Source: a virus
Direction: 5' to 3' (one strand)
Length of the DNA: 5,219 nt
IMG/VR virus record: IMGVR_UViG_3300045988_096283
The notes under the pieces are model-generated. The model made no database searches. It saw only the letters and a program-made list of their open reading frames with translations, and was not told the DNA's origin. Positions within the stretch are counted from its first letter, which is position 1; each line of letters begins with the position of its first letter. Shown one piece after another: positions 1,598 to 3,656 of the stretch. The translations under genes and the position numbers were made by a program.

Positions 1598-1768
1598 ATG
1601 GATTATCTTGTTAGTTTGTATGATGTTTATAAAGATGATTATATAACTTTTCACTTTTATAGTGATTATGACGTTGCTTCTGATGATTTTTATGCTGATC
1701 TTGATGAGGCCGCATCTGATCGTGGTATAGATTTTTATCTTGTTGAAGAAGTTTTTGAAGGTTTTTGA
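1598..1768 (+). CDS. Hypothetical hyper-acidic, aromatic-rich small protein (56 aa), accessory ORF C
   Basis: ATG 1598 lies 6 nt after GAGG (1588..1591). The stop TGA (1766..1768) is 1 nt before the Rep ATG at 1770. T-ending codon bias is strong. The sequence is MDYLVSLYDVYKDDYITFHFYSDYDVASDDFYADLDEAASDRGIDFYLVEEVFEGF, with 16 D/E, 2 K/R and 14 Y/F. The start could instead be ATG 1586. The track start at 1568 is TTG. Confidence 0.55.
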   Translation: MDYLVSLYDVYKDDYITFHFYSDYDVASDDFYADLDEAASDRGIDFYLVEEVFEGF

Positions 1769-1769
1769 A

Positions 1770-2798
1770 ATGTGCAAACATCCTTTAAAAGGTTTTCCTA
1801 TAGGTATTTGGCCTGATTCTGGTAAATCTAAATATAAGATTGTTTCATATAATACTGATTTTGTTCGGTTTGATGGTGATCATTGGCATGCTCTGCAAGG
1901 TGTTCCTTTCGGTGATTACGTGTCTGATTTTATTGAAATTCCTTGCGGACAGTGTATTGAATGTCGTTTACAGTATGCCCGTGACTGGGCTAATCGTTGT
2001 ATGCTTGAAGCTCAGTATCATGATGAGAATTGGTTTTTAACGTTAACTTATGATGATGACCATCTTCCTGATCGGCATGAACTTGTAAATTGTGAGACCG
2101 GAGAAATAGTCCCCTCTCCTATTGTGTCGCTTGATAAGGATGAACTTTCTGCCTTTATGAAAAGGCTGCGGAAGAATACCGGTCAAAAGATTCGCTTTTT
2201 TGGTTGTGGCGAGTATGGTGATGAGACTCATCGGCCGCATTATCATGTTATTATCTTTGGTCTTCATCTTAATGATCTTAAGATATATAAAACTAATTTT
2301 CGCGGAGAGATCTTATATAACTCTCCTACTATTGATAAAGCTTGGCAGTATCGAGGTCATGCCGTTTTGGCTGAGTGCTCATGGGATACTTGTTGTTATG
2401 TAGCCCGTTATGTAACTAAAAAGTTGAAGGGTAAATCTTCTTACATTTATGAAGATTTAGGTATACAATCTCCCTTTGTTCGTATGTCTCGAGATCCCGG
2501 CATTGCCCGTTATTATTATGACGATAACAAAAGTAAAATATATGATTATGATAAAATTTTACTGTCAACTTCCGTTGGCGGTAGGTCTTTCAAGCCGCCT
2601 CGGTATTATGATAAGTTGTATGATGTGGAGTATCCTTCTGATATGGCTGCTATAAAATTGAATAGGCAGTATGTCGCAGAGAAGATAAAAAATAATAAGT
2701 TAAAAAGAACAGGTCTAAAGTATCTTGATTTGTTGGCCATTGAGGAGGATACTCTTATCAACCGTCTTGGTCATCTCAAAGAAAGGAGTAAAATATGA
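1770..2798 (+). CDS. VP4: VP4 replication initiation protein (rolling-circle HUH endonuclease, 342 aa)
   Basis: The rolling-circle Rep motifs occur in order: FLTLTY (2034..2051), HUH motif HYHVIIFG (2238..2261), and catalytic-Tyr motif YVARYVTKK (2397..2423). There is also a CGQCIECR cysteine cluster. The N-terminus MCKHPLKGF from ATG 1770 resembles the usual MC..P start of gokushovirus VP4. The track start at 1740 is a TTG with no RBS. Confidence 0.96.
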   Translation: MCKHPLKGFPIGIWPDSGKSKYKIVSYNTDFVRFDGDHWHALQGVPFGDYVSDFIEIPCGQCIECRLQYARDWANRCMLEAQYHDENWFLTLTYDDDHLPDRHELVNCETGEIVPSPIVSLDKDELSAFMKRLRKNTGQKIRFFGCGEYGDETHRPHYHVIIFGLHLNDLKIYKTNFRGEILYNSPTIDKAWQYRGHAVLAECSWDTCCYVARYVTKKLKGKSSYIYEDLGIQSPFVRMSRDPGIARYYYDDNKSKIYDYDKILLSTSVGGRSFKPPRYYDKLYDVEYPSDMAAIKLNRQYVAEKIKNNKLKRTGLKYLDLLAIEEDTLINRLGHLKERSKI

Positions 2799-2911
2799 GG
2801 CGAAGAAGAATGAGTAGGCGCAAAGATAAGAGAGTTTTTGCCCGTACCGCTGGCAAGACCAAACAAATTAATGTTAAACCCGGAGAATGGAGAGGAGGCA
2901 TAAGATTATGA
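2795..2911 (+). CDS. VP8: VP8-like small arginine-rich DNA-binding/packaging peptide (38 aa, phiX174 J analogue)
   Basis: It is not in the ORF track because it is too short. ATG 2795 lies 6 nt after AAGGAG (2783..2788) and overlaps the VP4 stop as ATGA. The translation is MRRRRMSRRKDKRVFARTAGKTKQINVKPGEWRGGIRL, with 15 of 38 residues K/R. The RGGIRL C-terminus and RR.S.R...R.F.RTA pattern match gokushovirus ORF8 peptides as I recall them. Confidence 0.8.
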   Translation: MRRRRMSRRKDKRVFARTAGKTKQINVKPGEWRGGIRL

Positions 2912-3147
2912 AATATGGTTTATATACTATGAAAGATGAGAAAGTGGGTTATCTTCAGGTTACTCAGGACGTTAATGATTATACAGCTGTTAGGAATTTT
3001 ACCCATGCTATAACGGCCGAAGGCTCTTTATTTAATGCTAATAAGAGTGATTTTAAGCTTTATAAGCTTGGTGAGTTTGATTCTGCTACTGGCGAGATAG
3101 TTCTTTGTCCTACTATTGAGCTTGTTTGTGATGGAGGTAGTTTATAA
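2908..3147 (+). CDS. VP5: VP5-like non-structural protein (79 aa)
   Basis: ATG 2908 overlaps the VP8 stop as ATGA and lies about 9 nt after GGAGG (2894..2898). MKYGLYTMKDEKVGYLQVTQDVNDYTAVRNFTHAI...SDFKLYKLGEFDSATGEI fits the conserved pattern Y...D.K...F..P....N...A.R.F ... DF.L...G.FD..TG.I that I associate with gokushovirus ORF5/VP5. The in-frame ATG at 2887 has its GGAG only 1 nt upstream, so it is disfavoured. Confidence 0.72.
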   Translation: MKYGLYTMKDEKVGYLQVTQDVNDYTAVRNFTHAITAEGSLFNANKSDFKLYKLGEFDSATGEIVLCPTIELVCDGGSL

Positions 3148-3656
3148 TGGATTATCGCACTCAATTTGATGAGCATGAAAGGTTTATTTGTGAGTCTGGA
3201 CGTGAAGAATATGAAGTATATACCGTTGATGATGATGGCAATCCTGTTGTGATTGGTGTTAATAATAGGTATGAGGAGATTCAGTCTCATAGAGAGTCCG
3301 TGGAGCTTTCTGTTCTTTTGCAGCGTTATGCGCAAGGTGATGAAACTGCTCTTAATAAGGTTCATGGTGTATATGAGGATATTGTTGATTCTCCTAAGAC
3401 CCTCGCCGATATTTATGAGTATGTTAAAGACGCTGAGAATAGTTTTAATGGCTTACCCCCCGGACTTAGAGATCTTTTCAATAATTCCCCTGTTGAATTC
3501 TGGCGGCAAGCCGGAACGCCTGAATTTCTTGAGAAGTTTGATAAATTTACTGCTGCCGAAGGATCTAAGAAAAAGGCAGCTAATAGCTCTAATAATAGCG
3601 GCAGTAATAACGATGGTAATTCGTCTAGTGGAAATGGAGGTACTTTGAATGAATAG
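3147..3656 (+). CDS. VP3: VP3 internal scaffolding protein (169 aa)
   Basis: ATG 3147 overlaps the VP5 stop (TAATG) and lies 9 nt after GGAGG (3133..3137). RYEEIQSHRESVELSVLLQRYAQGDETALNKVHGVYEDIVDSPKTLADIYEYVKDAENSFNGLPPGLRDLFNNSPVEFW matches the gokushovirus VP3 pattern (..IQSH...V.....L.R...GD...LN...G.Y.D....PK.L.....F..LP...R..FNN.P.EF). Its position immediately upstream of VP1 is the canonical one. Confidence 0.88.
   Translation: MDYRTQFDEHERFICESGREEYEVYTVDDDGNPVVIGVNNRYEEIQSHRESVELSVLLQRYAQGDETALNKVHGVYEDIVDSPKTLADIYEYVKDAENSFNGLPPGLRDLFNNSPVEFWRQAGTPEFLEKFDKFTAAEGSKKKAANSSNNSGSNNDGNSSSGNGGTLNE

Follow-up and report, generated by a model that had tools for sequence, protein, structure and literature searches.

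The open reading frame (ORF) at positions 1598-1768 of the DNA analysed here, a stretch of 5219 nt hereafter called the window, is almost certainly a real and conserved gene that encodes a folded protein, and the acidic proteins of 56-78 aa to which its product belongs constitute a previously undescribed small-protein family. The window comprises the entire circular genome of a gokushovirus-type microvirus (G+C content 38%), in which the genes are arranged in the order VP1, two small ORFs (265-450 and 440-658), VP2, a non-coding region, the acidic ORF, VP4/Rep, VP8, VP5 and VP3. The features that bear on the analysis are as follows.

3649 to about 176: VP1, wrapping round the circle
up to 1380: VP2
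between VP2 and the acidic ORF: non-coding region of 217 nt
1386-1407 and 1413-1451, + strand: two conserved palindromes/hairpins after VP2, with which the non-coding region before the ORF begins
1520-1547, + strand: weak sigma-70-like promoter match, TTTAAA-16-TATAGT, found by a consensus scan in AT-rich intergenic DNA
1588-1591, + strand: Shine-Dalgarno-like GAGG, 6 nt 5' of the acidic ORF ATG, read from the sequence
1598-1768, + strand: acidic ORF, coding for 56 aa, with the stop codon TGA at 1766-1768
1757-1761, + strand: Shine-Dalgarno-like GAAGG for VP4/Rep, within Glu-Gly codons of the acidic ORF and 8 nt before the Rep ATG
1770-2798, + strand: VP4/Rep, the replication initiator, 342 aa, beginning 1 nt past the acidic ORF stop
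2795-2911, + strand: VP8-like basic peptide, 38 aa, net charge +13, predicted to bind DNA
2887-3147: VP5
3147-3656: VP3

The identity of Rep was indicated by the products of relatives, which match Pfam PF23343 (REP_ORF2-G2P), and by tblastn with the window Rep, which gave matches at VP4/Rep-annotated regions of 3711 phage records. All six canonical gokushovirus genes (VP1, VP2, VP3, VP4, VP5 and VP8) were located elsewhere in the window, and the acidic protein matched none of the named genes in Pfam or PHROGs, in keeping with the view of an earlier note on this DNA that it is not a recognised gokushovirus gene; neither database contained a significant family for it, and a Pfam scan of six family members returned a sole match, to PF22084, in one member (E=0.14). 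The two small ORFs between VP1 and VP2 code for 61 aa (acidic, net charge -9) and 72 aa, respectively; they share 82-94% identity with their counterparts in the close relatives compared (L001 and L012), and none was detectable in other clades of the lineage.

Translation of 1598-1768 gives the 56-aa protein MDYLVSLYDVYKDDYITFHFYSDYDVASDDFYADLDEAASDRGIDFYLVEEVFEGF, which contains 16 acidic residues (12 D and 4 E), 14 aromatic residues (8 Y and 6 F) and only one K and one R, exactly as the earlier note had counted, and carries a net charge of -14. The other proteins of the window have on average 12.1% D/E and 10.4% F/Y, and relative to the rest of the proteome such a composition is improbable (P=7.5e-4 for at least 16 D/E and P=1.4e-3 for at least 14 F/Y); the acidic protein has 30 D/E/F/Y residues, whereas the maximum for a 56-aa stretch elsewhere in the proteome is 22. 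A second in-frame ATG lies 5' of 1598, at position 1586, but 1598 was adopted as the working start because a 1-nt insertion between both ATGs in one close relative (L012) places 1586 out of frame and yet keeps the ORF. The GAGG sequence at 1588-1591 is kept in all close relatives. Sigma-70-like sites were no more numerous in the consensus scan than in shuffles, and we infer only that the match at 1520-1547 may be a candidate promoter of the ORF-Rep operon.

That the ORF is maintained as a coding sequence is indicated by comparison of eleven near-identical genomes or fragments of the same clade (L001-L006 and L008-L012; 94-98% nucleotide identity). The frame is intact in all eleven, with a stop codon that alternates between TGA and TAA. 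In the ORF frame, the variable sites amount to 11 synonymous against 6 non-synonymous changes, with omega at about 0.13 and a binomial P=3.8e-5, whereas the identical sites read in either other frame give 2:15. For unsaturated pairs from other clades, omega was 0.10-0.38; comparisons between clades were saturated (dS>0.7) and were therefore left out. Conservation and dN/dS had been proposed in the earlier note as checks on the frame, and both came out in its favour, the frame being kept in relatives that form a family of about 59 clusters and being under purifying selection. A chance open frame in T-rich DNA might be suspected, since the window is rich in short ORFs (35 of at least 30 aa) and F, Y and D are favoured by T-rich codons, but selection specific to the ORF frame, conservation over some 59 clusters, preservation of the stop as TGA or TAA and a confident structure prediction all argue to the contrary. 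We take a chance frame to be exceedingly improbable, the family searches and the frame-specific selection having effectively refuted it.

Direct similarity searches were of little help in finding relatives of the protein: tblastn of the 56-aa sequence against 50,697 phage records gave nothing usable, and phmmer, run exhaustively on 1.84 billion representatives, recovered its own cluster only. Distant homologues were reached first through gene order, in genomes whose Rep is about 60% identical, and then by profile searches. Specifically, a positional homologue was present directly 5' of Rep in genomes whose Rep is 58-65% identical to that of the window. Homologues located in named records and contigs were the following.

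MG945728 and MG945297: 67 aa, directly upstream of Rep
MG945366: the record begins within the gene
Dulem virus 172: 62 aa, annotated as 'hypothetical protein'
L096 (an IMG/VR contig): 58 aa

The homologues match one another by tblastn with E values of 6e-3 to 2e-2 (against 2.3 Gb). Profile searching yielded 51 clusters and, in a second round, about 59 (clusters at 90% identity), containing proteins of 56-78 aa; scans of IMG/VR with the family alignment gained one locus (L096), the genome collection gave zero loci when scanned with the family, and a sequence profile search of the PDB gave no match. The clusters occurred only on contigs of at most 5.4 kb, which are full microvirus genomes (4.6-5.4 kb) or fragments, or in one prophage, and the ORF lay directly upstream of Rep in 28 of the 28 loci read. 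As judged from the sequences retrieved, the family was shown to occur in one lineage of mammalian-gut microviruses, the Rep proteins of which share at least about 58% identity with one another.

The family has the consensus MxxEMRDYVVSVVCxxDDxDxYHxIHFVTEYPVNSVGFWEDFYDVVFxLFDxxxxxxLRIxEIEEGF and the motif Y-[VL]-V ... h-x-F ... S-x-x-[FW]-x-x-D-[LF] ... E-x-G-[FI]-COOH, which the window protein fits, although it is the shortest member of the family and a divergent one. Residues Y3, V5, F20, D34 and G55 (window numbering) are invariant in alignments A2-A4; S28 and F56 are invariant in A2 and A3 and conserved at 90% or more in A4, the departure there being that of L096, whose protein ends in Ile. 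Composition is likewise maintained, with 12-17 D/E, 1-6 K/R and 12-19 F/Y/W residues across 49 members. One apparent variant with an odd N-terminus, P0004, was rejected as an independent variant, its contig (L007; ENA ERZ27299321 k141_38557; 728 nt) joining window positions 2112-2322, inside Rep, to 1638-2124 via the common sequence ATTATATAACT. The shared junction corresponds to window positions 2312-2322 and 1638-1648, the contig ends repeat, and the contig resembles a 685-nt circle or a tandem junction; the 9-mer TATATAACT is present in exactly two copies in the window. L007 could have arisen as a chimera during amplification or assembly, or it could represent a defective mini-circle left by aberrant rolling-circle termination.

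The acidic ORF is closely tied to Rep. Its stop codon (TGA, 1766-1768) is separated by a single nucleotide, A1769, from the Rep ATG (1770-1772), as the earlier note had stated, and the same junction, ...GAAGAAGGTTTTTGA(A/T)ATG, was found in the pig-faeces clade. In most members of the family, 1-2 nt lie between the ORF stop and the Rep ATG, and the last codons of the ORF contain the ribosome-binding site of Rep, an arrangement that fits tandem translation or translational coupling. Downstream, neighbouring genes among VP4, VP8, VP5, VP3 and VP1 overlap or abut. These positions, together with the TGA-A-ATG junction, bear out the proposal in the earlier note that the ORF heads the Rep-VP8-VP5-VP3-VP1 string, and the gene layout shows it to be the first cistron of that operon. 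A different junction is present in the clade of Dulem virus 172, in which a 71-nt GC-rich hairpin lies between the ORF and Rep, which is preceded by a ribosome-binding site of its own; the protein of this clade still ends in ...ENGF. Since the terminal Gly-Phe is kept there without coupling to Rep, it is probably constrained at the protein level and not by the Rep ribosome-binding site alone. The 71-nt spacer is an inverted repeat (…GTGCCGCACCTGCTTACAGCGGCAC…; L089 3061-3131 and L094 10190-10259) that was seen only in the Dulem-172 clade, where it stands in for the 1-nt junction of the other clades. In addition, Rep of this clade is annotated or called as two overlapping coding sequences (L089 3132-3962 and 3934-4158), both spanned by a single tblastn match to the window Rep, and a short N-terminal Rep call (276 aa) is also present in a prophage (L094 10260-11090) and in a Logan contig; the two-piece Rep could reflect a frameshift, possibly a programmed one, or a split Rep.

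The position upstream of Rep is occupied differently in other gokushoviruses. In most of those fetched, the basic VP8 peptide (...RGGIRL) abuts Rep upstream, whereas in the lineage of the window VP8 lies behind Rep. The nearest outgroups, with Rep 47-49% identical, have a window-like gene order, but the acidic ORF is absent from them and the slot carries other small ORFs, which encode short hydrophobic peptides of 33-46 aa. These outgroup ORFs (L184 2817-2918, L185 3035-3139 and L186 3017-3157) resemble the acidic ORF in position and small size and differ from it in coding for membrane-type peptides rather than an acidic soluble protein. A hydrophobic ORF (45 aa; L089 about 2577-2715) is also present in the Dulem-172 clade, besides the acidic one, and the hydrophobic ORFs of the slot are candidate lysis or membrane peptides. 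The VP2-Rep interval thus appears to be a slot for lineage-specific small genes, with the acidic protein confined to one lineage. Between clades of this lineage, the acidic protein is 33-40% identical, whereas VP1-VP5 and VP8 show 51-79% over equal genome distances, which makes the acidic ORF, by sequence comparison, the fastest-evolving conserved gene of the genome.

AlphaFold2 (AF2), run with the family alignment, predicted the window protein to be a single domain (pLDDT 93.6, pTM 0.75) with the elements beta1 (2-9), beta2 (14-21), a helix (29-41) and beta3 (47-54), and a consensus member of the family, P0034, was predicted to have the same topology (pLDDT 86.9). Since both models are confident and the two agree, the protein is predicted to be folded rather than to be a disordered acidic tail. 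Foldseek searches of the PDB with the two models gave no match below E=0.03. For the window model, the best E value was 1.3, and T7 Gp2, YkzG, T4 Dmd and phi29-type p56 were found at TM scores of 0.40-0.44; for the consensus model, the best match was the archaeal ribosomal protein LX/eL20 (TM 0.65-0.68, E 0.03-0.2), with p56 at 0.42 and phi29 p6 at 0.49. A search of BFVD revealed one family member, A0A858NM90 (56 aa, 34% identity, TM 0.95), the remaining matches being uncharacterised small phage proteins only. Because no PDB match was significant and several weak ones were found, the predicted fold is regarded as generic. The N-terminal domain of LX/eL20, although the best superposition for the family consensus model, is 12-18% identical and belongs to a ribosomal protein that binds RNA and stems from an unrelated lineage; it is a fold analogy only. 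T7 Gp2 and the epsilon subunit of Firmicute RNA polymerase (YkzG) are also small (about 50-65 aa), but these weak matches have TM scores of only about 0.40 and E values above 2, and inhibition of RNA polymerase in the manner of T7 Gp2 would hardly make sense when the phage itself relies on the host RNA polymerase.

The strong acidity and small size of the protein (net charge -14) agree with what is seen in DNA mimics in general, and the earlier note had pointed to Ocr and ArdA-type proteins as precedents. Ocr (T7 gp0.3) and ArdA do resemble it in having a very low pI and in being encoded at the head of the phage expression order. However, Ocr (about 116 aa) is entirely helical and dimeric, and ArdA (about 166 aa) is elongated and built of three domains; mimics of this type are elongated helical or multi-domain dimers that imitate B-DNA, whereas a single 56-aa beta-beta-alpha-beta unit is predicted here. 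The Ocr and ArdA Pfam models had no match in the scan of six family members, and no Ocr or ArdA chain was among the 50 best Foldseek matches listed in either search. Kinship with Ocr and ArdA is thus not borne out by the Pfam scan or by the predicted fold.

A closer likeness is that to p56, the uracil-DNA glycosylase (UDG) inhibitor of phages phi29 and PZA, an acidic protein of 56 aa with beta1-beta2-alpha1-beta3 connectivity (beta strands 10-17, 22-29 and 48-54 and helix 33-43) whose acidic beta1-beta2 loop is needed for UDG inhibition (PMC3239192). The two proteins share their length, strong acidity and strand order, have elements of near-equal lengths and an acidic beta1-beta2 loop, and come from small phages of Bacillota hosts; they differ in context, p56 being encoded in the genome of a double-stranded-DNA phage and the present protein in a microvirus Rep operon. 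At the helix positions that align with the E-x-x-Y motif defined in PMC10303552, most family members have E-D-F-Y or D-D-L-Y, and the window member has A-D-L-D. Quantitative comparisons gave no sign of homology: hhalign to p56 returned a probability of 0.3%, the family HMM scored p56 at 2.3 bits, a value equalled by 20% of shuffled p56 sequences (P=0.20), p56 was not recovered by the PDB profile search, and superposition on p56 (4l5n_C) gave TM scores (TMq) of 0.44 for the window model and 0.42 for the consensus, below TM 0.5. An alignment to p56 made by eye was accordingly discarded as a composition effect, on the basis of hhalign and the shuffle test. The resemblance to p56 lies in size, charge and topology alone, and it does not extend to membership of the p56 family in sequence or structure.

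Two further candidates were rejected. Mimicry of the C-terminal tip of single-stranded-DNA-binding protein (SSB), in which acidic residues precede a terminal Phe, would rest on E-x-G-F-COOH alone, the protein of L096 ends in Ile, and Gly precedes the Phe here, whereas in SSB tips that residue is Pro. A lysis function was dismissed since the protein is soluble, acidic and expressed first.

The non-coding region upstream of the ORF contains conserved secondary structures. Directly past the VP2 stop, positions 1386-1407 form a perfect palindrome, ACTGTCCTAT-AA-ATAGGACAGT, the pairing of which is likely to be under selection because a compensatory pair of changes (T1393C and A1400G) is present in L002 and L010. 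Positions 1413-1475 contain a strong hairpin with 15-bp arms (z=-6), followed by TGACACCTTTTTGAAAAAA; the hairpin loop (C[CT]TCTTGATG) and tail are conserved in L094 (about 14700-14770) with a different stem sequence. These palindromes after VP2 may represent a terminator, an origin or an attachment/recombination element.

L094, a metagenome-assembled genome (MAG) from mouse gut, carries a complete Dulem-172-like gokushovirus prophage (9925-15043), of which the acidic ORF is the first gene. The prophage is flanked by 32-nt imperfect palindromes, ACTATTCCCAAAA-N6-TTTTAGKAATAGT (with the variable base shown, ACTATTCCCAAAA-N6-TTTTAG(G/T)AATAGT), at 9910-9941 and 14967-14998. The MutS of the L094 host is that of Peptostreptococcales/Anaerovoracaceae (Clostridia), with a 100% match to MGBC162508, and at least one member of the lineage is thereby shown, on sequence grounds, to lysogenise a bacterium of this group. 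No integrase was found in the L094 phage, suggesting that a host tyrosine recombinase is used for integration. An integrated genome would have its acidic-ORF-Rep operon cut off from the AT-rich promoter region that follows VP2. Among the loci fetched, the window clade and the pig-faeces clade showed neither a prophage nor the L094 attachment palindrome. The prophage adds to the very few microviruses that have been tied to Gram-positive hosts, and its host provides a background for testing the acidic protein.

As to function, on which the caution of the earlier note was appropriate, we tentatively favour a role as an acidic decoy or inhibitor directed at a basic surface that binds nucleic acids, a UDG-specific version included, as a plausible though far from secure reading. 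The protein would act stoichiometrically, occupying the basic nucleic-acid-binding surface of another protein, and may work like p56 or other small acidic phage inhibitors of that type; contacts would be made by the conserved acidic positions D13 in the beta1-beta2 turn, D34 and D/E37 in the helix and E51 and E54 in beta3, and by the terminal Gly-Phe. The likeness to p56 speaks for such a role, as does the vulnerability of exposed single-stranded DNA to Ung-initiated cleavage (PMC10303552). The target would preferably be a host protein that endangers the phage DNA, or competes for it, as it enters or replicates, for example, a nuclease, a glycosylase or another DNA-binding defence or repair protein, and production first and alongside Rep would allow the target to be neutralised once replication starts. 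A host target is favoured because the gene is lineage-specific, because it evolves faster than the phage proteins that might be bound and because phages without the gene have the same Rep and VP8. However, the strict linkage to Rep would fit a phage-directed role equally well, and the fast divergence may mean no more than that a small protein is weakly constrained. The generic fold, a sequence likeness to p56 no better than chance and the lack of E-x-x-Y in the window member also count against the decoy. The main rival, serious though less likely than the decoy, is a partner of the phage's own proteins, which the earlier note had offered as an alternative: the acidic protein might bind Rep, masking its DNA-binding surface or tuning its activity, or serve VP8 as a charge-neutralising chaperone until packaging. 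The ORF is invariably adjacent to Rep, and in most members 1-2 nt part its stop from the Rep ATG, which would suit such a partner, as would the opposite charges of the acidic protein (-14) and VP8 (+13) within one operon and the fact that the slot upstream of Rep holds VP8 in most other gokushoviruses, VP8 having moved behind Rep here. Nevertheless, gokushoviruses that lack the acidic gene do without such a partner although their Rep and VP8 are the same, the ORF of the Dulem-172 clade is uncoupled from Rep by the 71-nt hairpin spacer, and the acidic ORF diverges faster (33-40% identity) than Rep and VP8 (58-79%).

Within the favoured decoy reading, the specific case of a p56-like inhibitor of host UDG, guarding both the single-stranded genome and the intermediates of rolling-circle replication in a Gram-positive host, appears unlikely. 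The host lineage is Bacillota, and the length, acidity, strand order and acidic beta1-beta2 turn are those of p56, with E-D-F-Y, an E-x-x-Y pattern, in the helix of most members; but the TM score to p56 is only 0.42-0.44, the hhalign probability and a profile score no better than that of shuffled p56 count against it, and the window member has A-D-L-D instead of E-x-x-Y. It is less likely still that the ORF is a translational leader that delivers ribosomes to the Rep start and sets Rep dosage, with a functionless product, as the 1-2 nt stop/start spacing and the position of the Rep ribosome-binding site within the ORF might suggest, because selection is purifying at the amino-acid level, motifs are conserved between clades that are 30-40% identical, a confident fold is predicted and the ORF persists without coupling in the Dulem-172 clade. 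An equally slight chance is given to an accessory role in lysogeny or recombination, for example, as a helper of integration or excision by the host tyrosine recombinase: in L094, about 60 nt separate the ORF start from the left attachment palindrome (9910-9941), and the phage has no integrase, but recombination directionality factors are, as far as is known, basic DNA binders whereas this protein has a net charge of -14, and the loci fetched gave no prophage or L094 palindrome for the window and pig-faeces clades.

To our knowledge, no anti-defence protein has been assigned to microviruses, and in a full-text search of the literature 'Microviridae' and 'DNA mimic' occurred together only in passing and never in a title or abstract. 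Microviruses have been described as nearly without accessory genes (PMC9239249). It is conceivable, though rather doubtful, that the acidic protein is the first anti-defence or host-takeover protein in Microviridae, a p56-like acidic DNA mimic that a 5-kb phage of Gram-positive Clostridia would make with Rep to shield its single-stranded or replicative-form DNA from a DNA-targeting host enzyme, for example, Ung or a nuclease. If it proves only to be a helper of Rep or VP8, it would be a modest addition to the catalogues of microvirus genes. As a conserved, predicted folded and fast-evolving acidic protein of 56 aa, it is a concrete and easily synthesised candidate for an anti-defence role.
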